NCBI GenBank assembly: GCA_048058975.1 | Contig: JBLLNP010000010.1 | Coordinates: 59,473-83,472 of the forward strand | Direction: 5' to 3' | Source: Balneola sp. | GTDB taxonomy: Bacteria; Bacteroidota; Rhodothermia; Balneolales; Balneolaceae | Length of the DNA: 24,000 nt | The notes under the pieces: model-generated | The model's database searches: none | Seen by the model: the letters and a program-made list of their open reading frames with translations, nothing else | What the model was told of the DNA's origin: nothing | Shown here: one piece after another, positions 602-14,862 of the stretch | Layout: each line of letters begins with the position of its first letter | Numbering within the stretch: position 1 is the stretch's first letter | Position numbers and translations under genes: made by a program

Positions 602-1021
602 ATGACTAGTTACGCCGAAATAATTTACCTGACAGTTGCGATGGTGGTTTTTTCGATGCTTTCTATAAATACTGCCAAGAATTTTAACACTTCCCGAAGC
701 AATATTTACAGAACTGAGCTCGAATACAGAGCCATTGCAGTAGCACAGGATGAACTGGATAAGGTTCAATGGATTTATGATGACAATGAGCTTGATCCCA
801 ACAATGCTTCGTATGTGTATGCCAATTATCCTATCACAGAAACTCATACGTATGGCTCAAGCAATGAATACAGCAGCAGCTATGTAATTGATGCCCATTC
901 TGTGCTAATTGGCGACAACGGTAGCCAAAAACGATACCAGGTTACTGTAAGTGTTTTGAATGATGAAGTAAATCCGGACGTATTTATTACCATGGACTAT
1001 GTAAAATCCTATTCATATTAA
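602..1021 (+). CDS. Small N-terminally anchored pseudopilin-like protein (minor-pilin-like); hypothetical
   Basis: 139-aa ORF preceded by AAGGTG. It has a single N-terminal hydrophobic helix (SYAEIIYLTVAMVVFSMLS) with a Glu near the N-terminus, but no canonical G/FTLIE prepilin cleavage motif. The stop lies 10 nt before the next SD-preceded ATG. Confidence 0.6.
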   Translation: MTSYAEIIYLTVAMVVFSMLSINTAKNFNTSRSNIYRTELEYRAIAVAQDELDKVQWIYDDNELDPNNASYVYANYPITETHTYGSSNEYSSSYVIDAHSVLIGDNGSQKRYQVTVSVLNDEVNPDVFITMDYVKSYSY

Positions 1022-1030
1022 GGAGTAGTT

Positions 1031-1618
1031 ATGAATGTAGGTTTAATGACGACTTTTGTAGTAGGTGGGCTTTTCATGATCTCGATGCTTGCCTTTAATC
1101 AACAGCTTATTACTGGTTCTCAGGAATTTATGTTGAGTACCATCAGCCAGGACTATCTGGATGAAGTAGTAACTGTGCTTTCTAACGATTTTAACCGGAT
1201 TGGATACAATACCGGAATAGCTGTTCCATTTACTACCCTTCAGACTAACAACATCATTTTTCAAGCTGATGCTTATGATAATGATAATTACGGTGCTACT
1301 AATATTCGCTGGTACTTTGATACAAGCGATCCTGTAACTACCACCGAAAATCCTAATGATTACTATTTGAAAAGAGAAGGGCCGATAACGGCGAATACGT
1401 ACGGTACAATTAAGTTTCCTGTTACCGTATTTAAGCTTAGTTACTATACCGCAGATGGTACTGCAACCTTTGATAAGAATTCAGTAAAGAAAATTGAAGT
1501 TCAGATTATTTCAGAATCAAGTGATGCTTATACCGTTGGTAATGGAAGTGAAGAGTTTTATCCAAAAAATGTTTGGAAACGTATTTTCGTGCCAAACAAC
1601 ATCAATTTGCCATATTAA
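1031..1618 (+). CDS. N-terminally anchored pseudopilin-like protein; hypothetical
   Basis: 195-aa ORF with an AAGGAG SD 6 nt upstream. The N-terminal helix is LMTTFVVGGLFMISMLAF and the remainder is beta-rich. It is tightly coupled to the flanking genes. Confidence 0.6.
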   Translation: MNVGLMTTFVVGGLFMISMLAFNQQLITGSQEFMLSTISQDYLDEVVTVLSNDFNRIGYNTGIAVPFTTLQTNNIIFQADAYDNDNYGATNIRWYFDTSDPVTTTENPNDYYLKREGPITANTYGTIKFPVTVFKLSYYTADGTATFDKNSVKKIEVQIISESSDAYTVGNGSEEFYPKNVWKRIFVPNNINLPY

Positions 1619-1630
1619 AGAGGAGTTATT

Positions 1631-3058
1631 ATGGGAAAGAGTCTTTTATTTTTAGTTGGAGGGTTAACCATTATAACCGGGTACATGCAGGTTCAGAATA
1701 ATCAGCGCCTGCAAACCCTTCCGGAAGTTACCGCTGCTTATTTTGAAGAGCAGCAGGCTAGAAACATTGCTAAAAGCATGATTGACAATGCCATTGAGCA
1801 CATGAAAGCCAACAATAGCTGGACAGACAGCCTTGAGATTACAGATGTAATGAATGTAGGCTCGGTACTTAACCGAGACTTACTACAAACAAAAAATATT
1901 GTAAAGTTGGTCAAAGCTGGAGGGGAACGCCCAAGCAACCAACAACAAGAAATAGAAGCAGACCAGTTACTGGCAGCAATGGATCAGGCAGGGATAAGTG
2001 GTTCCCTCAAAAGTTATACCCAAAGTTCAACCAATATACCTGTAAATAACAGCGTAGGAACCTGGGATGAATACAAAGTACTGTTGGTAAGTACCAGCAC
2101 CTATGACGGAATAGAAATCACAACCGAAGTACTTATGCAGCGGGATTCATTCTCAAAATACTCTTATATGACGGATGATGAGCTTAGTTCTGCGGGTTCT
2201 GACATTTGGTTTATGGGTTCAGATAATATTTACGGGCCAATACACACCAATGGTACTTTTAAGATGTCCGGTACCCCTTCTTTTTATGGATTGATTACGA
2301 GCCCGAATAACTGGGTAGCTCACTCCACAAACGGGGCAACCCCAAATTTCTACGGTGGGGAGAATTTCAACGCACCTACTAAAAGCTCGCCCAGCAGCTA
2401 TGAAATTTCAAAATTAACTACCGCTGCTGCTAGTGGAGGTTTAAGCTTTACTAACCAGTTAGATATTCGGTTCTATGAAAGTGGAGGTGTTGGATACGCT
2501 GACATCAATGAGTGGAACGGTACTTCATGGAGCGGTATAACTACCTATAACCTAAGTACTACTAATGGAGTGATTTCTACTACTGGTCGTGTTGATGTTG
2601 AAGGTGTTATAAAAGGGCAGATAACTCTGCATTCTGAGTCTTTGATTGAGATAGATGGTGATATCACCTATTTTACTAATCCACTTGTGGATTCCAGTTC
2701 TACTGATATGCTGGGCATAGTTAGCGAAGATAACGTACGTATTGATGAAAATGCTCATTCGGCATCGGGTTCTCTCGATTTAGATATTCACGCTTCCATT
2801 ATGGCAATGAATACCTCATTTTATGTAGAGAATTATGCTTCCTATAGCCCCAGAGGCTCCTTAAACCTACTTGGTGGCCTTATTCAAAGAAACCGGGGTC
2901 CAGTTGGCACTTTTTCCGGAACAACTATTGTATCCGGCTTTTCTAAAAACTATCAATATGATGGTCGTTTGAAAGGATCTATTCCTCCACATTTTCCAAG
3001 AGAAAGTATATTCTCTATTGTGTATTGGAAAGATGAAGTTGTAAAGGTTACAAATTAA
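1631..3058 (+). CDS. PilX-N-like anchored large fibre-associated protein (possibly PilX_N/DUF4900-type); hypothetical
   Basis: 475-aa ORF with a GAGGAG SD upstream. The N-terminal helix is SLLFLVGGLTIITGYM. The motif IYGPIHTNGTFKMSGTPSFYGLITS and the repetitive beta-rich C-terminus recall PilX-like type IV pilus accessory proteins. This assignment is from memory and is not verified. Confidence 0.55.
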   Translation: MGKSLLFLVGGLTIITGYMQVQNNQRLQTLPEVTAAYFEEQQARNIAKSMIDNAIEHMKANNSWTDSLEITDVMNVGSVLNRDLLQTKNIVKLVKAGGERPSNQQQEIEADQLLAAMDQAGISGSLKSYTQSSTNIPVNNSVGTWDEYKVLLVSTSTYDGIEITTEVLMQRDSFSKYSYMTDDELSSAGSDIWFMGSDNIYGPIHTNGTFKMSGTPSFYGLITSPNNWVAHSTNGATPNFYGGENFNAPTKSSPSSYEISKLTTAAASGGLSFTNQLDIRFYESGGVGYADINEWNGTSWSGITTYNLSTTNGVISTTGRVDVEGVIKGQITLHSESLIEIDGDITYFTNPLVDSSSTDMLGIVSEDNVRIDENAHSASGSLDLDIHASIMAMNTSFYVENYASYSPRGSLNLLGGLIQRNRGPVGTFSGTTIVSGFSKNYQYDGRLKGSIPPHFPRESIFSIVYWKDEVVKVTN

Positions 3059-3062
3059 ACTA

Positions 3063-3458
3063 ATGAGAACTATTTTCACCCTACTCCTTCTGGGGGTATT
3101 TTCTCTGTTCGGCTCTTCTACTATTGAAGCGCGGCAGCAAGTAACATTTAACGTTAATTTGAAACCTCAACTTGAGGATAGCATATTCGTTCCCGGAAGA
3201 GATCAACTACAACTTGTGGGAAATTTACAACCTATCAATACAGCTCGTCCTTATTTTTTAACAGATACGGAACCGATCGATAGCGTTTACAGTGTAACTA
3301 TTACATTCCCTGGTAGATTTCGAAATCAGACTCTTATCTACAATTTCGAGATGACTGTTAACTACATCAAACAAAAAGAAAGCCTGGAACGCAGGCTGCT
3401 TCTGCGTACGGGTGAAGTGGAATTGGACGCACTATATTTCAATGCTTTTGCCTGGTAG
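3063..3458 (+). CDS. Small secreted beta-sandwich-like protein (CBM20-like pattern, weak); hypothetical
   Basis: 131-aa ORF starting 4 nt after the previous stop. The signal peptide is MRTIFTLLLLGVFSLFGSSTIEA. The strand pattern is VTFNVNL...LQLVGNL...YSVTITFP...IYNFEM. Confidence 0.55.
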   Translation: MRTIFTLLLLGVFSLFGSSTIEARQQVTFNVNLKPQLEDSIFVPGRDQLQLVGNLQPINTARPYFLTDTEPIDSVYSVTITFPGRFRNQTLIYNFEMTVNYIKQKESLERRLLLRTGEVELDALYFNAFAW

Positions 3459-3556: not shown

Positions 3557-4072
3557 ATGAGGCAGTTAGCATTTCTGGTTACCATTTTTACTTTTTTGTC
3601 CTTCACCTCCTCTGTATCAGCTCAGGACAATGACCCAAGGCCCAGCGTTACTGCCTTAGTAAATATTTCTGCCCAGGTAGTACAATCCATTCAGCTCATA
3701 ACAGTTAATTCCATGACCTTTGGAAATGTGCAACCGGGACAGCTTGAGATATACGTTAACCCCATCAACGATGTAAATGCCGGTTATATGATTGCCGTTG
3801 GAACACCTGGTGCAGAATTCCGGCTCGATTTTCAGCAAGTACGAAACCTTACCAATGTGGAAGACGAAGGTTTTCTCACTTTCCAATACGAACTTTCCGG
3901 TAACGATACAGAAGACCAGTCCAGTTCTGAATTAATAGAAAATGAAAACCGTAGCATCGTTTTTAATGCGGATGGAGAATATCACATCTGGGTTGGTGGA
4001 CGAGTTAACATTGAGAATGCAACCCCTGGTAGTTACGAAGGCGATTTTACTATCGAAATAGATTATATCTGA
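3557..4072 (+). CDS. Secreted fimbrial subunit, SCPU/DUF4402-type (Csu-like archaic chaperone-usher family), paralogue 1
   Basis: The signal peptide ends SVSAQ|D. It has an N-proximal FG motif (MTFGNVQPGQ) and a C-terminal signature shared by all four paralogues (IWVGGRVNIENATPGSYEGDFTIEIDYI-COOH). Confidence 0.65.
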   Translation: MRQLAFLVTIFTFLSFTSSVSAQDNDPRPSVTALVNISAQVVQSIQLITVNSMTFGNVQPGQLEIYVNPINDVNAGYMIAVGTPGAEFRLDFQQVRNLTNVEDEGFLTFQYELSGNDTEDQSSSELIENENRSIVFNADGEYHIWVGGRVNIENATPGSYEGDFTIEIDYI

Positions 4073-4076
4073 GCTA

Positions 4077-4679
4077 ATGTGCAAACTGCATCAAATAGCA
4101 CTAACTGCATTAATTCTCTTAATCAGTTTTACGTCTAATGCTCAGGAGATCAATTTTGGAACTTTCAGTAGTTCATATTCTATGACGGTTACCCCAACAA
4201 ATGGGACAACACTTAATTTCGGGCAATTAATCTCAGGCGATGTAGATCCCGTAACAATAGCTCTGGACGATTTCGAAACGATTATTATTAGCGTTACAGG
4301 AGTAAAGTATCTGGATGTATTTGTACAAATCACTGCTCCTGATTACATAATCAAAGACGATCAACCCGGATGCGTAACCGATAATTGCAGAGTACCCTTT
4401 ACCCTTTCCGCGGCTTATGCGAACAAAGGAATGGAAAACAGCAACCAGGCAGTCATTATGAATGTACTCTCTAATTCTGCCAGTGCCCTCTTCCCGATAA
4501 GATCGAGAGGAAACGCGCCTCCCGGCCCTCCCCCAACTCCTGTGTACGAAGGATATAATCCAGCCTTGTATGAAGATACAGCCTATATCTATGTGTATGG
4601 AAGTCTTGCTGCAGGCACTTACGATGCCGGAACCTACACTTCTTTAACTGATATTTCAGTGATGGTTTCCTATGATTAA
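4077..4679 (+). CDS. Secreted fimbrial subunit, SCPU/DUF4402-type, paralogue 2 (larger, with a PPGPPPTP insert; candidate minor or tip subunit)
   Basis: The signal peptide ends SNAQ|E. It has the LNFGQLISGD motif and the C-terminal signature YVYGSLAAGTYDAGTYTSLTDISVMVSYD-COOH. The start lies 4 nt after the previous stop. Confidence 0.65.
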   Translation: MCKLHQIALTALILLISFTSNAQEINFGTFSSSYSMTVTPTNGTTLNFGQLISGDVDPVTIALDDFETIIISVTGVKYLDVFVQITAPDYIIKDDQPGCVTDNCRVPFTLSAAYANKGMENSNQAVIMNVLSNSASALFPIRSRGNAPPGPPPTPVYEGYNPALYEDTAYIYVYGSLAAGTYDAGTYTSLTDISVMVSYD

Positions 4680-5202
4680 GACTGGTAAATACATATCAGC
4701 TTTTCTTTTTTTAATTGCTCTTGGATACCAAAATTTGAATGCCCAGTTCATAAACCTGCAAATACGAATTGAACCTGAAATAACAGCCAAGGTTGAGCAA
4801 AATCTCGATTTCGGAGAATTAGTTATTGGTTCAGGAGAAAAGTATATAGGCCTTGGCGATTTGAATATGGGCGTGTTCAGTATTCGTGCGCTCTACACCC
4901 AAAGCATCTATTTATCTATGAATGCTACCGATGCCCTGGTTCACACCAATCCTTTTATAGGAGATCGGATCCCAATCGATTTGAATATTGCTTACAACAA
5001 CACGGGAAATAACAATGCAAACCGGTCTATTGAATTATCTGAAAACCTGGTTTATTTACCTGTGTATGACAATCCCGGCAACCCAAGGCCAAACCCGATC
5101 TGGCAGGAACTCTATGTGTATGTGTTCGGCACCATAGAGGTTGGAGAAGTTGCTACCGGAGAATATTTTTCTGAACTCACCTTGGTTGTACAGTATGATT
5201 AA
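4672..5202 (+). CDS. Secreted fimbrial subunit, SCPU/DUF4402-type, paralogue 3
   Basis: The ATG overlaps the previous gene by 8 nt (ATGATTAA). The signal peptide ends LNAQ|F. It has the LDFGELVIGSG motif and the C-terminal signature YVFGTIEVGEVATGEYFSELTLVVQYD-COOH. Confidence 0.65.
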   Translation: MIKTGKYISAFLFLIALGYQNLNAQFINLQIRIEPEITAKVEQNLDFGELVIGSGEKYIGLGDLNMGVFSIRALYTQSIYLSMNATDALVHTNPFIGDRIPIDLNIAYNNTGNNNANRSIELSENLVYLPVYDNPGNPRPNPIWQELYVYVFGTIEVGEVATGEYFSELTLVVQYD

Positions 5203-5205
5203 GGG

Positions 5206-5238
5206 TTTCTTAATAAAACAGGGTATTTCATTAAGAAA
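5206..5238. promoter_or_regulatory. Perfect 9-bp inverted repeat TTTCTTAAT-N15-ATTAAGAAA immediately after the stop of paralogue 3, inside the 181-nt gap before the major-subunit gene
   Basis: I read the arms directly at 5206-5214 and 5230-5238. The element is AT-rich and has no following T-tract, so it is more likely a protein-binding site or weak attenuator than a strong terminator. Confidence 0.25.
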
Positions 5239-5383
5239 TAAAAACCTTCTTAAAACACCCAAAAACGCCATTTTTATCCTTTTCTTAGACGTTTTTAATT
5301 AAGACACTCTAACTTGTACCCCTCCAAACTAATGGATAAGTTTGTATCAGAAATTAACAAACCAACACTCTCAACTTATTACT

Positions 5384-5890
5384 ATGAAAACTTTAAAAAC
5401 TCTTTCGATCTTTGTTGTTGCTGCTTTTTTAAGCAATGGTGCTTTCGCACAGGAAACTGCTGATGTAGCTGTTTCTGCTACTGTTGAAGCTGCTTTAGTT
5501 CTTACTCCAACAGCGGTTGCTCTTGGAACTATTCAAACTGGTGCTGCTTCTATCATTGACGCTAACGCAAATGATGATGCTACTGAAGCTAACTTAGGTA
5601 CTGGTGCTTCTGCTGGTTCTTTGCAAATTACTGGAACTTCTGGTGCAAGCGTTGATGTATCATGGGGAAATGCCACTCTTGATAATGGTTCTAACCCTAT
5701 CACTTTTACTCCATCTGTATGGTTAGGTGCTTCTGAGCTTACTACTCCTGCTGGTACTTCAGTAACTTTGACTGGCGGTGATATCACTATCGATGTTGGA
5801 GGCGCATTAGCTGCTCCAGGAGGAACTGGTACCTACAACACTTCTACTGGTTCTGGATCACCAATTACTTTCACAGTTTCTTATAACTAA
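5384..5890 (+). CDS. Candidate major fimbrial subunit, SCPU/DUF4402-type, paralogue 4
   Basis: I prefer the ATG at 5384 (MKTLKTLSIFVVAAFLSNGAFAQ|E) over the TTG at 5342 in the ORF track. The mature protein is Ala/Thr/Gly/Ser-rich, with C-terminal signature ITIDVGGALAAPGGTGTYNTSTGSGSPITFTVSYN-COOH. It shows strong NNT codon preference (GCT/ACT/GGT/TCT), has its own upstream gap, and is followed by a strong terminator. Confidence 0.7.
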   Translation: MKTLKTLSIFVVAAFLSNGAFAQETADVAVSATVEAALVLTPTAVALGTIQTGAASIIDANANDDATEANLGTGASAGSLQITGTSGASVDVSWGNATLDNGSNPITFTPSVWLGASELTTPAGTSVTLTGGDITIDVGGALAAPGGTGTYNTSTGSGSPITFTVSYN

Positions 5891-5905
5891 GAAGGTTAAG
5901 AATTT

Positions 5906-5944
5906 AAAAAAGTCTCATTACTTCGGTGATGAGACTTTTTTTTT
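5906..5944 (+). terminator. Rho-independent terminator or attenuator with a cUUCGg tetraloop after the major-subunit gene
   Basis: AAAAAGTCTCAT-TA-C(TTCG)G-TG-ATGAGACTTTTTTTTT. The core stems are 5911-5918 and 5929-5936, the loop is C-UUCG-G (5921-5926), and a 9-T run follows (5936-5944). Confidence 0.8.
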
Positions 5945-6039
5945 ATCAGAAAAGACGGAGATTTTCTTCAAATTTAATCTTATATAAAACTTTAGCACTT
6001 TTTAGCTATTTTATTACGGGTTCAAATAAAATTGGAAAA

Positions 6040-6882
6040 ATGAAAAATATCATCTCGTCTATTACTTTCTTCGCATTGCTCCTTTTGCTTTTTCAAGGAG
6101 TACTTATTGCTCAGGTAACTATTTCACCTACCAACTTGTTTATTGACGACAATGCTCAATTTGGTTCTTATATGGTGATTAATGGTTCCAATGAAGCACA
6201 GGAAATAAGCATCGATTTCTTCTTCGCCTATTCCCACTCTGATGAAAACGGAACCAGAGGAATTGTCCAGGATGACTCAGTGAGTGAAAGCCTGTATTCT
6301 ATCGCCGATAATGTTCGTGCTTTCCCCAGGAACTTTACCCTTGCCCCGGGCCAACGACAAACGGTTCGCTTAAGAGTTTCAGGCACAAATGAATTACAGG
6401 ATGGAACCTATTGGTCTCGTATTAAAACCACTTCCACCCCGGAAACTCCCCCATTGGAAATTCAGAACAATGACGCAGTTACCGCAAGAGTAGGAATAAA
6501 AGTGGAGCAGGTAACCGGACTATTTTTCAAAAAAGGGAGCGTAACTACCGGAATTGAAATTAATGGGATAGAAACCAGTACCGAAAATGATGGGAATACG
6601 CTTAATGTACTTGTTGATTTACTAAGAACAGGTAACTCTCCTTTCCTTGGAACTATTACCACAGAAGTTTTAAATGCGCAGGGTTCCAGCGTACTAAGCG
6701 ACTTCGTTTCAACATCTATCTATTTTGACGGCAAGTTCAAACAACAACTTAATATCCAGGATTTACAACCCGGTAGTTACCAGATTAAAGTAACGTTTGA
6801 AAGCAGTAGGACTGATATTGATCAAAGCAGGCTGGTTCAAATGCCTGTTTCAACCCAAACCGTACCATTCTCTATCAGGTGA
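6040..6882 (+). CDS. Periplasmic fimbrial chaperone-like protein (PapD-like, two Ig-like domains)
   Basis: I prefer the ATG at 6040 (MKNIISSITFFALLLLLFQGVLIAQ|V). The GTG at 5926 in the ORF track lies inside the terminator hairpin. The N-domain pattern VTISPTNLFIDDNAQFGSYMVINGSNEAQEISI...FPRNFTLAPGQRQTVRLRV...DGTYWSRIK matches the PapD_N layout. The gene sits between the subunit genes and the usher-like gene. Confidence 0.6.
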   Translation: MKNIISSITFFALLLLLFQGVLIAQVTISPTNLFIDDNAQFGSYMVINGSNEAQEISIDFFFAYSHSDENGTRGIVQDDSVSESLYSIADNVRAFPRNFTLAPGQRQTVRLRVSGTNELQDGTYWSRIKTTSTPETPPLEIQNNDAVTARVGIKVEQVTGLFFKKGSVTTGIEINGIETSTENDGNTLNVLVDLLRTGNSPFLGTITTEVLNAQGSSVLSDFVSTSIYFDGKFKQQLNIQDLQPGSYQIKVTFESSRTDIDQSRLVQMPVSTQTVPFSIR

Positions 6883-6905
6883 CACATTGGTATTCATCAT
6901 AATTA

Positions 6906-9893
6906 ATTCATTCACTGGTCATTATTTTATGTTGTTTATTTAGTTCTACCATTGTAAACGGCCAAAATAGTGATGATGAAGATTTTGAAGTATACCTGTC
7001 TTTTCGACACCGCGGAATAATTAACACGGTTATCATTTCTTATTATAAGAATGATGAATTCTATCTTCCTGTAAACGATATTTTCTCTAAGTTTCAGATT
7101 GAAACTGAAATTTCAGGTATTAAAACCTCCGGGCGCTTTGGCGTAGAACAAACTCCCTATTCTATTGATTTCACAGAACAGGTTATCCGTTTTGGGGATG
7201 AAAGTTACACCCTCACCAAAGAAGAGTTTCTGATTAAAGATCTGGACAATTATATGCCCGCAAGAATATTTAATGAAGTATTCGGGCTTAATTTCGAAGT
7301 AGATTTTAATAACCTCGCTCTTTCTCTCGATACAGAAAAAGAACTACCTATCGTTGAACGTGCAATCAGAAATCAGAGAAGAAATTTAGCCAATCAAAAC
7401 AGAACGGGGATCTCCTATTTCCCGCTAGAAAAAAAACGATCCTTCAGTTTGCTGGATGGTGGCTTTGCTGATTATAGTTTCTCATCGGCCACTAACCGTG
7501 AACGAACTAATTTTAGTGCAAGTACAGCTTTAGGGCTTCAACTGGCAGGTGGGGACCTTGAAGGCACTATTTTTGGAAACTACAACAAAGATGATTCCTT
7601 TATTGAAACTAATTCACTTCGCTGGAGGTACGTCATCAGAAACAATCCGGCAATATCAACCATTACAGCTGGACAAACTAACCTTGATGGCGTTGTAAAT
7701 GCGCCATACACTGGTATTAGACTTACTAATCAACCTAATGAACCCAGAAGATTCTTTGATGAGTTTGCAATCGATGGAAATACTTTCCCGCTTTCTGAAG
7801 TTGAACTCTACCTGAATAATTCACTTGTTGACTTCCAGACTGCTGATGACGCCGGGAATTACCGATTCCTCACTCCTTTATATTATGGCTCTTCCCAGCT
7901 GGATATCCGAATTTTTGGCCCGACAGGTCAAACAGTGGAACAATCTTCCAGAATTCAGGTCCCTTTCACTTTTTTACCCAAAGGAGTGCTAAACTATAAT
8001 CTAAATGCCGGTATTCTGGATAATCCCCTTTTCGGAACTACAGAACGAACCAATGTTTTTACTGCAAACTCTGCGTTTGGAGTAACAAAATGGATGACTG
8101 CAAAAGTAGGGTATGAGTTTTATGAAGGCTCAGGAATTGTGGAAGATAATTCCGCTTTAACAGGAACTATCTCTTCTCGGCTGCTTTCGAATTATATACT
8201 CACCCTCGAAGGTGTTTCAGGTGGGTATTACCGCTCTGCTCTTAATGCCGTTTATGCCAGTTCCGCAAGTATTAATGTTGATTATATCAACTTTATTGAC
8301 AATGCGACAATCTATAACAGTTCGAGTAATGATCAACAAATCCTGGCAAATGTCTTCTTCCCCATTTCTCTTGGGAACTTCCCTTTAAGTGTCCGTACCT
8401 CCATTTTCTCCCGGTTTAGAGATGACATCAGTTTTTCTACGTTTCGTATGGATCTTAATGCTCGTTTGAGGAAGTTGAATTTAAGACTAGGTTATACCGA
8501 GCGATTAAACAACTCATTCCAGGTCTTTAACTTTGAGAATAATTCTACCCTTGAAGCTGCATTAACCTACAACGTACCAAGGACAAGAGACATACCAGGC
8601 TTCATTCGCGGCACTTTATTCAGAGGTCAATTCCGGTACGATCCAAAGGAAAAAAAACCGGAAATATTTGAATTACTGTATTCAAGAAGTGTAACAACCA
8701 ATGGGAGGTTGCAGCTTACCTTGGGCAGAAACTTCCAATCAGAATTTAACTCCATTCGCTTCAATTTTGTGATAGATTTTGGGAAAGTAAGGTCTAATTC
8801 TACATTTACAATGCTGGGAGATAATTATAATGTCACTCAAAACTTCAGGGGATCAGTTGGGTACGACTCTAATTACAAGAACTTTTTATTCACAAGCAGA
8901 GACCAGGTAGGAAGATCGGGGGCCGCTGTTAAGCTATTTGTTGACAACAACAATAATAACACCTTTGACGAAGGAGATGAGCCTATTAACGAAGGCACCA
9001 TTCGGGTTGGGCGAAGCGGTACATCTTCTACTCAAAAAGACGGGATTTTTTACTATACACAGATGTTGCCCTATTTCCAGTACAATCTGGAAATGAATAA
9101 AGGCTCTATCAGAAACCCTATGCTTGTTCCCGAACTGGAGAAATTCTCGATTATTACCGATCCCAACTCTTTCAAAAAAATTGAAATTCCGTTTTACATG
9201 TCTGGTATTATTGAAGGAGAAGTAATCAGACAATATCTAAACGGAGGTGAAAAAGGTATTGGTGGTCTTAAACTGGTATTAAGCTCTTTAGAAAAGGATT
9301 TTGTTAAAGAAATCAGAACGTATTCTGATGGAAGTTTTTATGAATATGAATTGCCTCCGGGTAAATATGAAATTGTTGTAGATCAGGGACAGCTGGACAT
9401 CCTGAACTCGAAATCTCTCCCTGAAAAAATTGAGCTCGAAATCGAAGCTATACCCGAAGGAGACTTCCTTGAGGGAATAAACTTTACCCTTGTCCCTGTT
9501 GATTTCGAAGAACAACCTGAGGAAGTAGAAACCGTAACAGAAGCTCCGGTTACCTTAGCGGATGTCCCCATCGAAATAATTAATTCCCCTGAAGTTATCC
9601 TTTATGAACAACAGCTACTTACTAATGTTGAAAAAGCTTTACGTTTGATTATTCTAACGCAAAATGCCTTCTTCGAAAAAGACTTTGAAACCGCATTTGG
9701 CTATATTAATGAGTCACTTAACAACTTCGAGACGGCACAAGGATACGCTTTAAAAGGCAGTATACAGTATTTTCAGGGAGACCGAACCGGTGCAGTAACC
9801 AGCTGGAGAATGGCTTTGCGGTTCGATCCTGATATTTACATCCCTACTCTCGAAGAGTTAGATCAAAAAGTAACGGTTAGTTCTTCTGAATAA
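6906..9893 (+). CDS. Usher-like outer-membrane fimbrial assembly protein with a C-terminal acidic linker and TPR-like extension; the 5' end is uncertain (no canonical start before ATG 7254)
   Basis: The frame is open from 6903. Codons 6906-7253 encode a signal-peptide-like segment (IHSLVIILCCLFSSTIVNGQ) and an usher-N-domain-like segment (EVYLSFRHRGIINTVIISYYKNDEFYLPVNDIFSKFQIE). The body has an amphipathic beta-strand pattern rich in aromatic-terminated strands (TAKVGYEFY, LRLGYTERL, LEAALTYNV, IRFNFVIDFG). Two beta-sandwich-like modules follow, including GIIEGEVIR...GGLKLVL...TYSDGSFYEYELPPGKYEIVV. The first ATG/GTG/TTG in frame is at 7254. Confidence 0.6.
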   Translation: MHSLVIILCCLFSSTIVNGQNSDDEDFEVYLSFRHRGIINTVIISYYKNDEFYLPVNDIFSKFQIETEISGIKTSGRFGVEQTPYSIDFTEQVIRFGDESYTLTKEEFLIKDLDNYMPARIFNEVFGLNFEVDFNNLALSLDTEKELPIVERAIRNQRRNLANQNRTGISYFPLEKKRSFSLLDGGFADYSFSSATNRERTNFSASTALGLQLAGGDLEGTIFGNYNKDDSFIETNSLRWRYVIRNNPAISTITAGQTNLDGVVNAPYTGIRLTNQPNEPRRFFDEFAIDGNTFPLSEVELYLNNSLVDFQTADDAGNYRFLTPLYYGSSQLDIRIFGPTGQTVEQSSRIQVPFTFLPKGVLNYNLNAGILDNPLFGTTERTNVFTANSAFGVTKWMTAKVGYEFYEGSGIVEDNSALTGTISSRLLSNYILTLEGVSGGYYRSALNAVYASSASINVDYINFIDNATIYNSSSNDQQILANVFFPISLGNFPLSVRTSIFSRFRDDISFSTFRMDLNARLRKLNLRLGYTERLNNSFQVFNFENNSTLEAALTYNVPRTRDIPGFIRGTLFRGQFRYDPKEKKPEIFELLYSRSVTTNGRLQLTLGRNFQSEFNSIRFNFVIDFGKVRSNSTFTMLGDNYNVTQNFRGSVGYDSNYKNFLFTSRDQVGRSGAAVKLFVDNNNNNTFDEGDEPINEGTIRVGRSGTSSTQKDGIFYYTQMLPYFQYNLEMNKGSIRNPMLVPELEKFSIITDPNSFKKIEIPFYMSGIIEGEVIRQYLNGGEKGIGGLKLVLSSLEKDFVKEIRTYSDGSFYEYELPPGKYEIVVDQGQLDILNSKSLPEKIELEIEAIPEGDFLEGINFTLVPVDFEEQPEEVETVTEAPVTLADVPIEIINSPEVILYEQQLLTNVEKALRLIILTQNAFFEKDFETAFGYINESLNNFETAQGYALKGSIQYFQGDRTGAVTSWRMALRFDPDIYIPTLEELDQKVTVSSSE

Positions 9894-9895
9894 CA

Positions 9896-11755
9896 ATGCA
9901 TTCGATTAACAACTTACATATCGGATCAGGTTTTTTACCATGGAAGAAGTACACCCTGAATTGGATGAAAACTCTGTTTTCCTCTATTCTGTTTATTGTT
10001 ATTGCTGTTTTAACATTTTCGGCTTCAGTTCTTGCACAAAACGCTGTTGATCCAGCAAATTCTCAGTCTCTCGATCTTAAAGTCTCCTCGTTGGAGCAAA
10101 GCTATGATGCCCAGGTTTACTTACTGCTCTCTAATTACTTCGACCGTAAAAAATTCTTCGTAAATACAGGAATAAACGCAGAATTTGTTGATGAAACTAT
10201 TGAAACTACTTCGAATGCGATCGTCAGGAATCAACCGGATCCGATAATTATGCCTGGTCTTCCCTTCCTTCCTCAGGAGAATCTAAGACAACCGAGCGGT
10301 ATCGGCGAGTCGCCTGAAACAGTCGTAAATCAAAATACGGTTCGCACTCTACGGTTAATTGATGTGAATATCAGTATCTATGCTGATACCTCCTTTAATG
10401 CTGAGGAAATCCAGTTTATGCGATTACTAACGGGAATTTCTGCGAAAATTAATGAATCCCGTGGCGATGTAATCACCATTGCTCAGATCCCTATTCCAAA
10501 ATTCGGAGATGATGACCCTGTTCGTATTGTTCAGACAGAACCGGAAGATTTTAACCTTGTTGCATCATTCAGGCAGTACATTCCAGGCTTTGTACTTTTA
10601 TTTTTGTTTGGCATGATTATGTTTGTAAGTCACTACTTCAACAACAAATCGAACAATAATCGCGTCTCTCCTCTCCAGCAAAGAGAGAGTATTAAACACG
10701 ATATTAGCATTAGTGACTACAATCCCCGCACAGTAGAACAAGTAATGGTAAATGGGAGTACTCAACGGGATCCTTCCATTGAAGTAGATGAATTGATTGA
10801 AAGCTTCTTTACCAAATCACAGGAAATTTCCCTCTTATTTGAATTCTGGATGTCCGATTCTCCTGAAGAAGGAATTACTAAAGCAGCTGAAGTAGTGGCT
10901 AGTGTTGACCAAAGCCTGCTTAGGGCCATCAAAAATGATATGCAAAGCGAAAACTATGAAGCTATTGTTACTGCTTTGGAAGAGTTACAACCGATGACCT
11001 CTGAGTATAAAAACTCGGTAATCAGAAATTTCAATTCCGTTCTTCGATCAGGAAACAAAAACTCACTCAGTTCAAAAAAGAACGGTCACATTACACTTTT
11101 CAAGTTTTTAGATCATATCAACGAGCGCCAAATGGTGAACCTGTTAGAAGACGAAGGCTACCAAACCGGAGCTTTGATTTTAGATTATCTGCCAGATGAT
11201 AAAGCTGCACGTATACTCGATCGTCTTGATAAAACGAAGAGTACAAACATCATGCTTAAAATGACCACTATAAATACCATCCCCTACAAACTTCAGAGTG
11301 AGATTTCTGCCCGGTTGTTTGAAAAGGCAATGGATTTAATTGATGAAGAGCGCGAACAGCGTCTTGGAGCGGAAAACATACTGCCAGTACTTGATAAACT
11401 TCCCCTTAGCGAGCAACAAAATTATATCGACCAACTAAAGGCAACAAATTCTATAGTAGGCGAAATTGTAGAACGACAGTTTATCACGGTTGATCAGGTA
11501 ATTAGCCTGACAGACGATATCATAAAAGATGCACTCAAAGATATAAACACCTCCACCCTGTTGGATGCCATCATCGGGCTGGATCAAAAACTGATCGATA
11601 AAATCTTATCCGTAAGGCCAAGAAGAGAGCAACGACTAATTCGCCTTGAATTAAGTGAAATGGGAGGTAATACTTCGAAAGATACTACCTACGCGAAAGC
11701 TAAAATGATGGAATCTATTCGAAATACTGTGAAAGAATCCAAAAAAGATCAGTAA
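9896..11755 (+). CDS. Membrane protein combining a FliF/SctJ-like periplasmic segment, a TM helix and a complete FliG-like (N, M, C) cytoplasmic region
   Basis: The ATG lies 2 nt after the usher stop, and an alternative ATG at 9965 gives MKTLFSSILFIVIAVLTFSASVLAQ|N. The periplasmic part ends ...TLRLIDVNISIYADTSFNAEEIQFMRLLTGISAKINESRGDVITIAQIPIP, followed by the TM helix YIPGFVLLFLFGMIMFVSHYF. The cytoplasmic part contains LLEDEGYQTGALILDYLPDDKAARILDRL (FliG-M, EHPQ-motif region) and LLDAIIGLDQKLIDKILSVRPRREQRLIRLELSEMG (FliG-C-like). Confidence 0.7.
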   Translation: MHSINNLHIGSGFLPWKKYTLNWMKTLFSSILFIVIAVLTFSASVLAQNAVDPANSQSLDLKVSSLEQSYDAQVYLLLSNYFDRKKFFVNTGINAEFVDETIETTSNAIVRNQPDPIIMPGLPFLPQENLRQPSGIGESPETVVNQNTVRTLRLIDVNISIYADTSFNAEEIQFMRLLTGISAKINESRGDVITIAQIPIPKFGDDDPVRIVQTEPEDFNLVASFRQYIPGFVLLFLFGMIMFVSHYFNNKSNNNRVSPLQQRESIKHDISISDYNPRTVEQVMVNGSTQRDPSIEVDELIESFFTKSQEISLLFEFWMSDSPEEGITKAAEVVASVDQSLLRAIKNDMQSENYEAIVTALEELQPMTSEYKNSVIRNFNSVLRSGNKNSLSSKKNGHITLFKFLDHINERQMVNLLEDEGYQTGALILDYLPDDKAARILDRLDKTKSTNIMLKMTTINTIPYKLQSEISARLFEKAMDLIDEEREQRLGAENILPVLDKLPLSEQQNYIDQLKATNSIVGEIVERQFITVDQVISLTDDIIKDALKDINTSTLLDAIIGLDQKLIDKILSVRPRREQRLIRLELSEMGGNTSKDTTYAKAKMMESIRNTVKESKKDQ

Positions 11756-11760
11756 CTCCT

Positions 11761-12303
11761 ATCAGGAAGAAAAGAAACATATCACTGGTAACCTTTAGCT
11801 TTCTGGGTATTTTTTTACTCTCTTTAGCTTGTGGATCATCAAGAGAAACCTCATCTCCTGCGGAAACTCCGACTGTGCAGGATAATAGTGTGAATATTGT
11901 CGATACTCCCGTTCAAGCAGCTCTTGAGGACACTGTAAGTCCTGAACAGAAACGCAGAGAACAACTCACTGAGCTTTATAAAGAAGAATTAAGCGATCAA
12001 TATCAGGCAGATGCTAACGGATTGATTAACTTCTACATTCTGGCACAGCAACGTTTTTTTACTGGCGATTACCAAAACGCGCTTATTCTTATTAATCGTG
12101 CGGCTTCAATAAAAGAAAATGCAGATGTACTGGCTTTGAAAGGCAGCATTTACCTTGGTCTTGGGCAAACTGAGAATTTTGTGGCTAATTGGAGACAGGC
12201 ACTGGAATTGGATGCAGATGTTCCAATCCCCCCTCTCCCTTATATAGTACAGCAGCTACAACTAAATGGGTTGTTAGACGAAAATCTTCAAAAGGCTTTT
12301 TAA
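11761..12303 (+). CDS. TPR-like lipoprotein; the 5' end is inferred at a non-canonical ATC (first canonical start is GTG 11875)
   Basis: The frame is open from 11704. Codons 11761-11832 read (I/M)RKKRNISLVTFSFLGIFLLSLAC|GSS, a textbook lipoprotein signal with lipobox Cys. The C-terminal half (FFTGDYQNALILINRAASIKENADVLALKGSIYLGLGQTENFVANWRQALELDADVPIP) is TPR-like and paralogous to the usher C-terminus. Confidence 0.6.
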   Translation: MRKKRNISLVTFSFLGIFLLSLACGSSRETSSPAETPTVQDNSVNIVDTPVQAALEDTVSPEQKRREQLTELYKEELSDQYQADANGLINFYILAQQRFFTGDYQNALILINRAASIKENADVLALKGSIYLGLGQTENFVANWRQALELDADVPIPPLPYIVQQLQLNGLLDENLQKAF

Positions 12304-12304
12304 A

Positions 12305-13102
12305 GTGAGAACTTCTGTATTAAACATTTTAAGCTTTCTGGTTTCCGTAGTATTTCTTGGATGGGGAGCACTCCTCGTAATGGGATTTACCCAATATGAT
12401 TTAATCCCATCTGAATATAGCTTTCTTAACCTGCCTAGTTTGGCCATCGTTTTTGGCGGAATTTCTGCCAGTGTTTTTATCAGTTATCCGTTTCGTAAAG
12501 TAGTACAGGCCTTAAGAGACAGTACCAAGTTGTTTTCGCAGAGTACCATTACCGACGAGATGCTTGAACGGGATATAGATGATATCCTGGAATGGCAAAA
12601 AATGATAAATGCCGATAAAATTCAGGCTGTTTCCGAGCTTAGCAAAACCTACAACGATCGTTTTGAAGGATATCTTTTTTCCGTGCTGGATACCAATTAC
12701 TCAACCGAGGAATTGAGAGAGCTAGGTGAAATAAACATCACAGAAAACTACACAAGGCAGCAGCAAATAAACCAGATCATAGCCAGTATGGGACGAACCT
12801 CACCCGTTTTTGGTATGCTTGGAACCCTTTTTGGACTTGTAGTAATTCTTTCGGGATTTAGTGAAGTTGAATCTTTGCTAACCGGTCTTGGAGCAGCCTT
12901 AATGACTACTCTTTACGGAATCATAATTGGGAACTTTGTTTTTACCCCAATGGCAAAAAAGATGAATAATATTGCTTCTTTGCAATATTTCCGCGAAAAA
13001 CTAATCCTGGAGGGGATTATTCTTATCGAAGAACGAAAAACATCCCTACAGATCTACGACCGCTTGCAAGCACATATGCGTCGGGGAAGTTATAAACTCT
13101 AA
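12305..13102 (+). CDS. motA: MotA/PomA-type proton-channel stator subunit (MotA_ExbB family, 4 TM)
   Basis: The GTG start lies 1 nt after the previous stop. There are two N-terminal TM helices, a cytoplasmic loop of about 100 aa, then SPVFGMLGTLFGLVVILSGF and LGAALMTTLYGIIIGNFVFTPMAKKM. These are the conserved TM3/TM4 with the Pro residues typical of MotA. The topology is 4-TM MotA-like rather than 3-TM ExbB/TolQ-like. Confidence 0.8.
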   Translation: MRTSVLNILSFLVSVVFLGWGALLVMGFTQYDLIPSEYSFLNLPSLAIVFGGISASVFISYPFRKVVQALRDSTKLFSQSTITDEMLERDIDDILEWQKMINADKIQAVSELSKTYNDRFEGYLFSVLDTNYSTEELRELGEINITENYTRQQQINQIIASMGRTSPVFGMLGTLFGLVVILSGFSEVESLLTGLGAALMTTLYGIIIGNFVFTPMAKKMNNIASLQYFREKLILEGIILIEERKTSLQIYDRLQAHMRRGSYKL

Positions 13103-13113
13103 GAGCTTTATTT

Positions 13114-14862
13114 GTGGAACCTAAGCCACTAAATAGTAATCGTAATTCTTTATTTCCGGGTGAACCATTCGAACCGGAAGATGACGAAAGCTGGCAGGTT
13201 AGCTATCTGGATATCATCACAATTATTTTAGGTTTCTTAATCATACTTCTGTCTGCTTCCCAACTAGCTAAAACTGATTTTACTTCACTATCTACGTTAT
13301 TTGGCAATAACTCAGACCGAACCGAATTCATCACTACCCCGGTTGAGGAAATACAGGAAGAACTGGAAACTCTTCTCCAAACCCAAATAGAACAAGAACG
13401 TTTAGAAGTTATCCGTGACTTAAATGATATCAGAATCCGATTCAGAAGTGACGATTTCTACCCTTCAGGAAGTGCAAATATACAAGGATCCGGACTGGAT
13501 TTACTGAACCATGTTCTGCGTGCTTTCCAGCAAACTACCTACAACGATTTTAGCATCGATGTTGAGGGACATACCGACAACGTCCCTATCTCATCTGATC
13601 AATACCCTTCGAACTGGGAGCTTTCAACGGCTCGTGCTTCCAACGTAGTGAAGTATTTCAATCAAATGGGTATTGAGCAAGATCGCCTTAAAGCATCAGG
13701 TTTTGCTGATTCCCGGCCATTAATTCAGTTTGATTCATTTGGTAATCCATTTGCTGCAAGCAAAGAAAAGAACCGAAGAGTTGTACTCCGCTTATATTAT
13801 ACCACAGAAGGACTACAGCGGCAGGCTACTCAGGATGCACTCGCCATACGTGATAACCCGCCTGTGAACGCTGAGGAGGAGGTCTCTCAGCCTGCTGCAT
13901 CAACCGCCGAACAACTTGCTCAGGAAATTGCCCAGATCAGCACATCAAACCAACAGGAACTCATTCCTGAACCTGAGACCCCTCCCGCCCCGGCTCAGAC
14001 CCAGACACCTGTACCTGATCCGACCCCAAACGAAGAAATTTCTCAACGAATCCCTCCTTCTGTCGAACCGGAATCAGATGATACATTACCATTTATTCCT
14101 TCTGTGTTTGATCAGGCTGCATCATGCGATTTTGTGGTTCAAACAGGAAGTTATCAATCACTTTCAAGTGGCTTCCAGGTAGCTAAGAATTCTGAGAATA
14201 AAAGTGGATATGAATTTGAAGTCTCATACAACAATTCGTTGTATTCTGTCCGCTCAAATAAACTTGGATCGCTTTCTAATGCACTATTTGTTCAGAATAT
14301 TGTTTCTAAAGCTTTGAATGAATCCACTATAGGAATTGTGCATCAATGTTATCAATCGAGGCAGCTCGCACCTGAGACACTAACCTATCAGATTCAGTTT
14401 GGAGCATTCAGAAACCAGGAAAACGCACTTAATTATACTATGAATGTGCTGGATCAATACGGAATTCAAACCTATATGAACCGAAGAGGCTCTACGTATC
14501 TTGTAGTTGCAGGGCCTTATACAGGCAGAGAAACTGTGACCGAACAATTACAGGCATTCAAAGAGAAAGGAGTTACTGAAAAAATATATATCCGCCATAC
14601 TGATGAATCTGTAAAGGAATATAATTTTATCTATCAAGTTCAATTGGCTTCATTTTCTAGTCAAAGCGAAGCAAGAACGGCCTTACAGCAAATCCAAACA
14701 AATCTTCAGATTCCGGTAAGCGTTAAACAGCTGAATGATGGAAATTACTATGTGGTCTCAGAAAGGATTACAGACTGGGATGAAACCACTCAGCTCTTCA
14801 GTCGGGCACAAAACAGCAGCTTGAGCTTGAAGCCTGTGATATACTATCTGGAATATCTGTAA
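13114..14862 (+). CDS. motB: MotB-type stator subunit with an OmpA-like peptidoglycan-binding domain, a Pro-rich linker and three C-terminal SPOR-like domains
   Basis: GTG start. The MotB N-terminus WQVSYLDIITIILGFLIILLSAS carries the invariant TM Asp (D33, nt 13210-13212). The OmpA-like core is IDVEGHTDNVPISSDQYPSNWELSTARASNVVKYF...GFADSRPL...NRRVVLRL (nt about 13420-13800). The linker is PEPETPPAPAQTQTPVPDPTP. SPOR-like units lie at about 14125-14313, 14380-14583 and 14626-14838. Confidence 0.8.
   Translation: MEPKPLNSNRNSLFPGEPFEPEDDESWQVSYLDIITIILGFLIILLSASQLAKTDFTSLSTLFGNNSDRTEFITTPVEEIQEELETLLQTQIEQERLEVIRDLNDIRIRFRSDDFYPSGSANIQGSGLDLLNHVLRAFQQTTYNDFSIDVEGHTDNVPISSDQYPSNWELSTARASNVVKYFNQMGIEQDRLKASGFADSRPLIQFDSFGNPFAASKEKNRRVVLRLYYTTEGLQRQATQDALAIRDNPPVNAEEEVSQPAASTAEQLAQEIAQISTSNQQELIPEPETPPAPAQTQTPVPDPTPNEEISQRIPPSVEPESDDTLPFIPSVFDQAASCDFVVQTGSYQSLSSGFQVAKNSENKSGYEFEVSYNNSLYSVRSNKLGSLSNALFVQNIVSKALNESTIGIVHQCYQSRQLAPETLTYQIQFGAFRNQENALNYTMNVLDQYGIQTYMNRRGSTYLVVAGPYTGRETVTEQLQAFKEKGVTEKIYIRHTDESVKEYNFIYQVQLASFSSQSEARTALQQIQTNLQIPVSVKQLNDGNYYVVSERITDWDETTQLFSRAQNSSLSLKPVIYYLEYL

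Follow-up and report, generated by a model that had tools for sequence, protein, structure and literature searches.

The gene at positions 9896..11755 (forward strand) of a 24,000-nucleotide stretch of Balneola sp. DNA (assembly GCA_048058975.1, contig JBLLNP010000010.1, positions 59,473 to 83,472), hereafter the window, is a natural end-to-end fusion between the C-terminal third of FliF, the protein of the flagellar membrane/supramembrane (MS) ring, and a FliG-like protein. The FliF part consists of the third ring-building motif (RBM3), a shortened collar hairpin and the second transmembrane helix (TM2), and probably also includes the FliG-binding tail. Homology of both halves, the membrane topology, the conserved charges of the torque helix and an obligate MotAB neighbourhood are documented in what follows. 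By analogy with the flagellar rotor, we infer that the fusion protein forms a ring and rotates; our preferred reading, to which we give a probability of about 0.65, is that of a minimal rotor ring without type III export, which MotAB would drive and which would be connected to a fibre platform in the outer membrane.

The open reading frame (ORF) is unbroken and codes for 619 residues. An earlier reading of this DNA, made by a model from the letters and their translations and termed here the sequence-only reading, had already proposed a FliF-FliG fusion; all the peptides that it quoted are found in the translation and its coordinates are right, nucleotides 10037-10576 corresponding to residues 48-227, 10577-10639 to residues 228-248, and 10781-11740 to residues 296-615. 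Two AlphaFold2 models were built, one of the full-length protein (38-sequence family alignment) and one of residues 45-262 (23-sequence alignment). The full-length model comprises a hydrophobic helix (17-44), a periplasmic domain, a transmembrane helix (229-252), a disordered linker and an all-helical cytoplasmic part (293-618). The features of the protein, in window coordinates, are the following.

9896..10036, + strand: N-terminal extension and probable cleavable signal peptide, residues 1-47 (modelled as helix 17-44; Q48; fast evolution)
10070..10489, + strand: FliF RBM3-like domain, residues 59-198, with alpha1, a long collar-like beta-hairpin, alpha2 and beta3 (AlphaFold2, Foldseek, profiles)
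10250..10273, + strand: MPGLPFLP motif, residues 119-126, in a low-confidence loop at the hairpin tip (invariant in the family)
10460..10468, + strand: RGD motif (R189 G190 D191) before beta3 (invariant in the family; aligned to the FliF RGD before TM2)
10577..10651, + strand: transmembrane helix, residues 228-252, equivalent to FliF TM2 (helix 229-252 in the model; profile alignment spanning TM2; basic residues on the cytoplasmic side)
10772..10861, + strand: two helices with a motif resembling FliF's C-terminal tail (consensus P-Q-E-I-A-L-L-F-E-Y-W-I-D; W318 nearly invariant)
10862..11089, + strand: FliG N-domain-like helical region, residues 323-398 (Foldseek alignment to full-length FliG; TIGR00207 from position 62)
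11090..11398, + strand: middle domain of FliG with the long linker helix, residues 399-501 (Pfam FliG_M; alignment to E. coli FliG)
11399..11752, + strand: FliG C-terminal domain, residues 502-619 (Pfam FliG_C; TM-score of 0.70-0.78 with Thermotoga maritima FliG_C, normalised by target length)
11615..11662, + strand: torque helix, residues 574-589 (R574, R577, E578, Q579, L581 and E585 invariant)

In the AlphaFold2 model, the periplasmic domain follows the order alpha59-81, beta87-109, beta140-164, alpha169-183 and beta192-198, with a mean predicted local distance difference test score (pLDDT) above 90 in the core blocks. This alpha-beta-beta-alpha-beta order is that of a ring-building motif, and the two overlong strands sit where FliF inserts its beta-collar. 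When the periplasmic model alone was compared with the PDB by Foldseek, the 18 best matches were all FliF (E 2e-8 to 7e-6), namely 17 cryo-electron microscopy structures of the MS ring or S ring (RBM3/collar) from Salmonella and Vibrio, and one integrative FliF model. TM-scores reached up to 0.5-0.6 on RBM3-only targets, and the next matches after FliF were OsmC/Ohr, PrgK and SpoIIIAG, at E of about 0.004-0.03. An exhaustive HMMER search of 1.84 billion representative proteins with the periplasmic profile gave 158 matches at E up to 1e-3, among them canonical FliF proteins carrying both YscJ_FliF and YscJ_FliF_C according to Pfam (P0225, E 1.3e-5; P0231, 4.2e-5; P0239, 1.8e-4). The ring-building-motif fold that the sequence-only reading had suggested for the periplasmic part is thus borne out by the fold matches as well as by the retrieval of canonical FliF. 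With a refined profile, the alignment to P0231 spans the entire domain without a break, while that to P0225 falls into two pieces, alpha1-beta1 at positions 238-281 and beta2-alpha2-beta3-TM2 at 369-484; the latter corresponds to an RBM3 split by the collar insertion, of about 90 residues there and about 30 in the window protein.

Other comparisons of this half were less productive. The FliF half of the window protein has no Pfam YscJ_FliF_C match at E up to 0.1, and this family is matched by 12 out of 46 divergent fused relatives. When the PDB sequences were searched by HMMER with the domain profile, FliF was matched no better than at E 0.96, in an alignment that puts the RGD before TM2 exactly in register; hhalign, with E. 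coli FliF as the only target, matched just 28 columns around the RGD, with a probability of 1%. These last two matches are each unconvincing alone; it is the exhaustive search and the fold search that settle the FliF identity. The RGD motif, which the sequence-only reading placed before the transmembrane helix on the basis of the family consensus, lies exactly where the profile aligns to FliF, and the helix itself is recovered both in the model (229-252) and by the FliF profile alignment, which runs through TM2. Neither RBM1 nor RBM2 (Pfam YscJ_FliF) was matched in the fusion, whose approximately 180 periplasmic residues are all taken up by the single RBM3-like domain. With regard to the hairpin tip, P120, G121, L122, P123 and P126 are invariant in the 38 family members, and LPGLP is kept in the divergent family, so that this loop might represent a candidate partner-binding site.

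Between the transmembrane helix and the FliG part, the motif PQEIALLFEYWID resembles the ends of FliF proteins, such as DPRVVALVIRQWINND in E. coli and NPEVARKIIKNWIGD in P0225; E. coli FliF terminates in DPRVVALVIRQWINNDHE, and other FliFs terminate in NPEVARKIIKNWIGD. In alignments, the motif falls on the last residues of E. coli FliF and of two FliF-like matches (P0229 and P0238), with non-significant scores. The pattern P...A.L...WI is kept across the 46 divergent relatives. These likenesses are suggestive, though not proof, of a remnant of the FliF tail that binds FliG.

In the cytoplasmic half, Pfam recognises FliG_M, scoring 45.8 bits over residues 411-480 (cut-off 25), and FliG_C, scoring 42 bits over residues 513-614 (cut-off 23.3). 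The TIGR00207 fliG equivalog model aligns residues 352-610 with its positions 62-319 (out of 338) at 67.4 bits, far under its cut-off of 226.7, and the FliG part is therefore to be regarded as a FliG homologue and not as an orthodox FliG. It also differs from the soluble FliG of about 330 residues in belonging to a membrane-anchored protein of 619 residues. When the whole model was searched against the PDB by Foldseek, full-length FliG chains came first (3hjl, 8wiw, 8umx), followed by FliF MS-ring structures; with FliG chains of 310-331 residues, 311-330 columns were aligned at E of about 1e-8. Direct comparison with E. coli FliG gave an E of 2e-7 by BLASTP and of 4.5e-6 by hhalign, the latter covering E. 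coli residues 114-295. A match to MgtE_N reaches 18.4 bits, under the Pfam cut-off; the cytoplasmic half does not therefore consist of MgtE_N-type repeats only, a possibility considered in the sequence-only reading, as FliG_M and FliG_C both score above their cut-offs and the best Foldseek matches are full-length FliG.

The three FliG-like parts previously distinguished did not fare equally. Pfam supports the middle and C-terminal ones, but its FliG_N match falls on the M region (421-476) and not on the segment that had been named FliG-N, which is thus unconfirmed by that model; the hhalign match to E. coli FliG does not extend into this region either, and its support comes from the fold alignment and TIGR00207. 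As already proposed, the EHPQR motif is degenerate and reads E420-G-Y-Q423 ... K455. At this position, Glu is found in 62 out of 92 divergent relatives, and His, Pro, Gln and Arg are not conserved. Such a degenerate FliM-binding motif fits with the absence of FliM and FliN. The charges of the torque helix, which had been singled out as a point to check, are conserved: alignment to E. coli FliG pairs the invariant R577 with R281 and the invariant E585 with D289, while D288 is paired with L584 and K264 with I560. Among 92 divergent fused proteins, the R281 position is occupied by Arg in 81 and by Lys in nine. Further, FliG_C is detected by Pfam in all 46 divergent fused relatives, FliG_M in 41 and FliG_N in 26.

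The stator genes follow a short distance downstream of the fusion gene.

12305..13102, + strand: MotA-like stator A subunit of the PomA/MotP type (Pfam MotA_ExbB; NCBIfam MotP 102.7 bits, PomA 85.9 bits)
13114..14862, + strand: MotB-like stator B subunit, with a transmembrane helix carrying Asp33, a plug, a peptidoglycan-binding OmpA domain, a Pro/Gln-rich linker and two SPOR domains (Pfam)

MotA is the most conserved protein of the cluster (64-93% identity). It lacks a segment equivalent to residues 112-132 of E. coli MotA, which resembles the shorter four-helix interface described for PomA-type stators (PMC12505986). MotB matches NCBIfam MotD at 135 bits and MotB_plug at 26.7 bits (cut-off 24), and its channel residue Asp33 (YLDI) is invariant in 50 sequences. 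Given these best NCBIfam matches (MotP, PomA and MotD), the plug domain and the invariant Asp33, the stator is classed by its sequence as flagellar type. With regard to the cytoplasmic loop of MotA, MAFFT aligns the always-basic K/R105 with E. coli R90 and S113 with E98, whereas BLASTP aligns LERD 87-90 with the LERD of E. coli (97-100), so that E88 would correspond to E98. Covariation between this loop and the torque helix was uninformative, the candidate residues being invariant within Balneolaceae and the distant MotA/fusion pairs numbering only five. The C-terminal part of the window MotB (13830-14862; 582 residues in total for the protein) is made of the Pro/Gln/Glu-rich linker and the two SPOR, or septal peptidoglycan-binding, domains. 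The SPOR pair is a feature of MotB in Balneolaceae; in five distant loci, MotB is 220-235 residues long and devoid of linker and SPOR domains.

The pairing of the fusion gene with motA and motB, pointed out by the sequence-only reading in the window, recurs in all fused-protein loci with enough sequence downstream. We collected 101 homologues of the fusion protein (38-94% identity), nearly all of 570-635 residues, and every named organism among them is a Balneola or another member of Balneolaceae. With one genome scanned per species, the gene is present in 47 species, nearly all labelled Balneolaceae; Gracilimonas tropica DSM 19535 and Balneola sp. EhC07 are cultured carriers of the cluster. 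The genes form a fixed block in all loci of sufficient length, namely three to four small DUF4402-like genes, a gene for a protein of about 280 residues, one for a protein of about 1000 residues, the fusion gene, a TPR gene, motA and motB. Housekeeping flanks (pyruvate dehydrogenase and alanyl-tRNA synthetase, AlaRS) are shared by the window and two annotated Balneolaceae loci.

Beyond this family, the exhaustive search revealed about 92 divergent representatives (clusters at 50% identity) with the same fused architecture. Five distant fused loci were inspected: motA and motB lie directly downstream of the fusion gene in all five, genes for proteins of about 280 and 970 residues precede it in three, and one of these three has four DUF4402-like genes in addition. 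For the taxonomy of the wider family, the only indications are one 'Bacteroidales' name and the type IX secretion sorting domains that neighbouring genes encode. Word-indexed protein searches with divergent N-domain and full-length alignments returned almost no matches. A variant is found in a Bacteroidales metagenome-assembled genome (L054/L055), where a 322-residue protein (P0116) with LysM and FliF-RBM3-like domains and no FliG part is encoded between a 967-residue usher-like gene and a TPR gene, MotAB being absent from the surroundings. The usher-like protein thus co-occurs with the FliF-like domain even without FliG and MotAB. A LysM domain also precedes the RBM3-like domain in two fused proteins (P0119 and P0170), and two or three tandem RBM3-like domains without FliG are seen in P0237 (532 residues, with a C-terminal TPR) and P0230 (452 residues).

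The N-terminal region had been read as a signal peptide or first transmembrane helix cleaved as VLAQ/N. The signal peptide stands and looks cleavable, but the cut is likelier to be VLA/QN, since Q48 is nearly invariant in the 38-member family alignment. In comparisons with the four closest loci, the nonsynonymous rate (dN) is 0.55-0.75 for residues 1-47 and 0.05-0.09 for the remainder of the protein, which evolves about ten times more slowly, and several homologues are about 20 residues shorter at the N-terminus. Thus, of the two transmembrane segments of FliF, the C-terminal one (229-252) is present, and the N-terminal hydrophobic segment ends in a signal-peptidase-like VLA/Q and evolves fast. 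A hydrophobic stretch with such an ending, within the fast-evolving residues 1-47, indicates that the mature protein is probably single-pass and that translation may begin at ATG 9965 (M24) instead of 9896. The N-terminal transmembrane segment of FliF has probably been replaced by a cleaved signal peptide. Gln directly follows each predicted signal peptide of the cluster (3557-11755; SAQ, NAQ, NAQ, FAQ, IAQ, NGQ and LAQ). The pattern resembles the 'Q-rule' of Bacteroidetes signal peptidase I; the paper concerned does not stretch this rule to the whole Fibrobacteres-Chlorobi-Bacteroidetes (FCB) group (PMC5837995), and the pattern is seen here in a lineage outside Bacteroidota proper.

In both the periplasmic and the cytoplasmic domains, the low dN of 0.05-0.09 goes with saturated synonymous sites, which denotes purifying selection and a fusion gene that is maintained and not decaying. 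Across the 38 family proteins, 45 columns are invariant. Scans for promoters and terminators gave no difference from shuffled sequence.

The other genes of the cluster code for envelope or secreted proteins.

11761..12303, + strand: TPR lipoprotein with lipobox LSLAC and a probable ATC start (upstream in-frame sequence, lipoboxes of homologues, TPR_8)
6906..9893, + strand: usher-like protein of about 995 residues with Ig-like domains and a C-terminal TPR-like domain (homologue alignment; weak Usher match in a relative)
5926..6882, + strand: chaperone-like periplasmic protein of about 280 residues (sub-threshold PapD_N in three relatives; fixed position)
3557-4072, 4077-4679, 4672-5202 and 5342-5890, + strand: four small secreted DUF4402-like proteins, candidate fibre subunits (DUF4402; family profile against the PDB)

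The TPR lipoprotein has its lipoprotein signal (IRKKRNISLVTFSFLGIFLLSLAC, cleaved before GSS) upstream of the listed GTG at 11875, which is too late a start; as the frame offers no canonical start, ATC 11761 is the probable initiation codon. It is the second gene of the cluster with a non-canonical start. The usher-like gene likewise starts before the ATG at 7254, as the in-frame stretch upstream of it codes for a signal-peptide-like segment and about 100 residues matching homologues, and the alignment with one homologue (L052) spans residues 25-124, upstream of this ATG. Since positions 6903-7253 contain no ATG, GTG or TTG, the start is probably ATT 6906 (or CTG 6915). Two other ORFs are probably overextended at the 5' end: that of the chaperone-like protein (5926-6039), probably starting at ATG 6040 (MKNIISS...) to give about 280 residues as in homologues, and that of the fourth small subunit (5342-5383), probably starting at ATG 5384 (MKTLKTL...).

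The last 80 or so residues of the usher-like protein (9650-9890) are paralogous to the C-terminus of the TPR lipoprotein (12035-12270), with 38% identity and an E of 5e-14. In three relatives (P0119, P0253 and P0147), the rotor ORF runs through a lipobox-like hydrophobic segment into a TPR domain. By such 'Rosetta-stone' fusions, a physical tie between the TPR module and the rotor protein is established. With regard to the upstream genes, the best PDB matches of the small-subunit family profile are Caf1 (six sequences, E 0.017-0.07) and CsuA/B (E 0.08), below significance. PapD_N is matched at E 0.004-0.06 in three relatives of about 280 residues, and Usher at E 0.012 in one of about 970 residues, again sub-threshold. 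Comparison by hhalign of the usher-like, chaperone-like and subunit families with FimD, FimC and FimA gave no match, and PDB profile searches with the chaperone-like and usher-like families found no chaperone or usher. With matches below threshold and the Fim comparisons negative, a chaperone-usher fibre system is to be taken as a lead and not as a finding.

Before the cluster (602-3458), the window codes for three proteins with hydrophobic N-terminal helices (139, 195 and 475 residues, the last one matching DUF4900), which look pilin-like from their sequences, and for a small secreted protein. These genes are kept in about half of the loci and, in relatives, are preceded by a gene for a protein of 2500-2700 residues with DUF2341, Laminin_G_3 and a type IX sorting domain. 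In a close relative (L007, OZ252011.1), the fusion, TPR, MotA and MotB proteins are 73-91% identical to those of the window and the pilin-like ones 75-83%, whereas the identity drops to 31-53% for the fibre-subunit, chaperone-like and usher-like proteins, a pattern suggestive of cassette replacement or of diversifying selection on the surface-exposed part.

From these elements, a mechanism can be proposed. Following cleavage of its signal peptide, the fusion protein would cross the inner membrane once; its periplasmic RBM3 domains would oligomerise into an S-ring-like ring, with the FliG domains forming a ring beneath the membrane. FliF itself assembles into rings of about 33-34 subunits. Ion flow through adjacent stators of the MotA5B2 type would push the torque helix of FliG_C, thereby turning or straining the ring. 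The periplasmic face of the ring would probably be linked to the usher-like protein through the TPR lipoprotein and the paralogous TPR domain of the usher-like protein itself, and the invariant MPGLPFLP loop, at the tip of the hairpin, is perhaps what the TPR modules bind. The usher-like protein, located in the outer membrane, would assemble a Caf1/Csu-like fibre, and proton- or sodium-motive force would in this way be delivered to fibre assembly, secretion or movement. In its fullest form, the proposal is that of an envelope-spanning machine in which a FliF-RBM3/FliG rotor with MotAB, operating without type III export apparatus, rod, hook or switch complex, is coupled by TPR modules to a chaperone-usher-like platform and rotates, extrudes or retracts a Caf1/Csu-like fibre; we advance this version tentatively, as one that may well turn out otherwise. 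Taken as a whole, the system may realistically be a machine of a new kind.

Several observations weigh against the preferred reading of a MotAB-driven rotor coupled to a fibre platform. The acidic positions of the torque helix are only partly conserved in the wider family, and the equivalence of MotA R90 and E98 changes with the alignment (BLASTP or MAFFT). For the upstream genes, the matches that point to a chaperone-usher system are sub-threshold, and the comparisons with Fim proteins are negative. The absence of flagellar genes is drawn from the inspected loci, with flanks of at most about 10 kb, and from the KEGG analysis of a single paper; and Balneola vulgaris has been described as motile with flagella (PMC5167729). 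This last report agrees with an alternative in which the protein is the rotor of an ordinary flagellum whose FliF and FliG happen to be fused and whose other genes lie elsewhere in the genome. Also in its favour, engineered and spontaneous FliF-FliG fusions assemble and work, and many flagellar KEGG orthologues occur in some Balneolaceae (Aliifodinibius). However, RBM1 and RBM2, which form the inner part of the MS ring in canonical FliF (PMC11739650), are absent, and the FliM-binding EHPQR motif is degenerate. No FliM, FliN, FlhA, rod or hook gene is present in any Pfam-annotated locus, and neither the window nor eight related loci with annotation, inspected with flanks reaching about 10 kb either way at most, has a match to the FliM/FliN family. 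The fusion gene always lies among fibre and usher-like genes, and the cluster is carried by Balneola and G. tropica, although these, like Fodinibius and others, were reported to be without KEGG flagellar-assembly genes (PMC9909488). According to the same paper, most Balneolaceae are non-motile, including the described Aliifodinibius and Fodinibius species, and Aliifodinibius retains an incomplete flagellar set. Lacking RBM1 and RBM2, and encoded in a cluster devoid of genes for a type III export gate, a rod, a hook, FliM or FliN, the ring would not be that of a flagellar basal body, and we consider an ordinary flagellum quite improbable. The two papers disagree on the flagella of Balneola, and the nature of the filament of Balneola vulgaris may merit re-examination in view of the cluster.

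A force-transducing scaffold, in which MotAB would drive limited conformational work on the usher-like pore in the manner of ExbBD-TonB and without continuous rotation, is an explanation that we deem unlikely, albeit less so than an ordinary flagellum. The homology and synteny evidence fits it equally well, TPR tethers to an outer-membrane protein would impede free rotation, and other 5:2 motors energise outer-membrane processes without a filament (PMC12204202); on the other hand, a ring-building motif together with a FliG torque helix means a rotating ring in every known case. The present evidence fits rotor and scaffold alike, and likewise fibre rotation and energised assembly. We give very little credit to a decaying relic of a lost flagellar system, or to a function unrelated to MotAB such as that of an MgtE_N-like regulator or sensor. 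Partial flagellar gene sets in Balneolaceae have indeed been read as remnants (PMC9909488), rotor proteins in non-motile species have been noted, and left unexplained, in a survey (bioRxiv 10.1101/2024.12.05.626484), and the weak MgtE_N match points the same way; but both domains are under strong purifying selection with 45 columns invariant across 38 proteins, the gene order is fixed in 47 species, MotAB pairing extends to distant lineages, and divergent representatives keep the fused architecture. Most remote of all is a Zorya-type anti-phage system with the FliG-like protein as an accessory: MotB does match ZorB models at 34-55 bits, but its flagellar MotB/MotD match in NCBIfam is much stronger (135 bits), and the cluster lies in a conserved housekeeping neighbourhood (pyruvate dehydrogenase, AlaRS) and not in a defence island. 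This candidate was rejected, as MotA has no ZorA match and no ZorC, ZorD or ZorE was found among the cluster proteins scanned.

If the fullest form of the proposal is true, the cluster would represent a second, independent use of the FliG-MotA torque interface, and might have been derived from the flagellar motor by reduction, or else be the surviving relative of an ancestor preceding export. It could also account for the 'flagella' and the motility reported for Balneola vulgaris, whose genus is said to have no flagellar-assembly genes. More generally, the family bears on the origin of the flagellar motor, that is, on whether the rotor/stator pair or the type III export core came first, and on the smallest unit able to accept torque from MotAB. 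It would provide a one-protein rotor with its own stator, with neither export apparatus nor switch, in mostly non-motile bacteria, and the question is testable in the cultured carriers G. tropica DSM 19535 and Balneola sp. EhC07. Furthermore, a chaperone-usher-like fibre pathway, a class thought to be free of any need for inner-membrane energy, may be wired to an ion-driven motor. Such a system would explain the 'rotor proteins without filaments' of genome surveys and the 'incomplete flagellar pathways' of KEGG-style analyses in this phylum.

We found no description of the fusion family or of the gene cluster in the literature, and a paper on MotAB phylogeny makes no mention of FliG-linked non-flagellar stators (PMC12505986). 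Compared with the canonical flagellar proteins FliF, FliG and MotAB/PomAB, the system shares the RBM3/collar fold, the RGD before TM2 of FliF and a motif suggestive of its tail, the middle and C-terminal domains of FliG with a torque helix bearing an R281-equivalent Arg, and the plug, channel Asp and OmpA domain of the stator, whose genes lie here beside the rotor gene. It differs in that FliF and FliG, two proteins in the flagellum, are a single polypeptide devoid of RBM1 and RBM2, with a collar insertion of about 30 residues instead of about 90. In addition, the EHPQR motif is degenerate, and the cluster, in which fibre and usher-like genes are the neighbours, has no gene for FliM/FliN, the export apparatus, the rod, the hook or the filament.

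Likeness to other 5:2 ion-driven motors, namely GldLM/PorLM of type IX secretion and gliding, ExbBD-TonB and TolQR-TolA, lies in the presence of an inner-membrane motor of the MotAB family beside genes for an outer-membrane or surface apparatus, and is one of functional analogy only. These systems possess no rotor ring of the FliG/FliF type, and in them the periplasmic transducer either belongs to the B subunit or binds it. The upstream genes, for their part, recall the Caf1 and archaic Csu chaperone-usher systems by the best matches of the subunit profile and by the succession of subunit genes, a chaperone-sized gene and an usher-sized gene; they depart from them in that all matches are below significance and that the usher-like protein has an extra TPR domain. 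Chaperone-usher systems are not known to need an inner-membrane energy source.

Covalent FliF-FliG proteins have been obtained in Salmonella and Vibrio, either spontaneously or by engineering (e.g., PMC11481574). These 1:1 fusions form rings, and the Salmonella motors work, showing that the covalent architecture is mechanically viable; unlike the fusion described here, they are laboratory constructs with full-length FliF within complete flagella. A natural FliF-FliG fusion has been reported in Chlamydiaceae (Bergeron 2016, PMC4768692), bacteria that are not thought to be flagellated. Like the window protein, it joins a FliF-like N-terminal part, with signal sequence, ring-building motifs and transmembrane segments, to a FliG-like cytoplasmic part. 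According to the same paper, no stator genes occur among the few flagellar genes of Chlamydia, and the fusion was proposed to act with the injectisome. As published, the chlamydial protein of about 330 residues harbours an RBM2-like domain and one unassigned ring-building motif, together with the FliG middle domain only, and has no torque-generating C-domain; this description sets it apart from the Balneola protein, with its 619 residues, RBM3, the N, M and C regions of FliG, and MotAB alongside.

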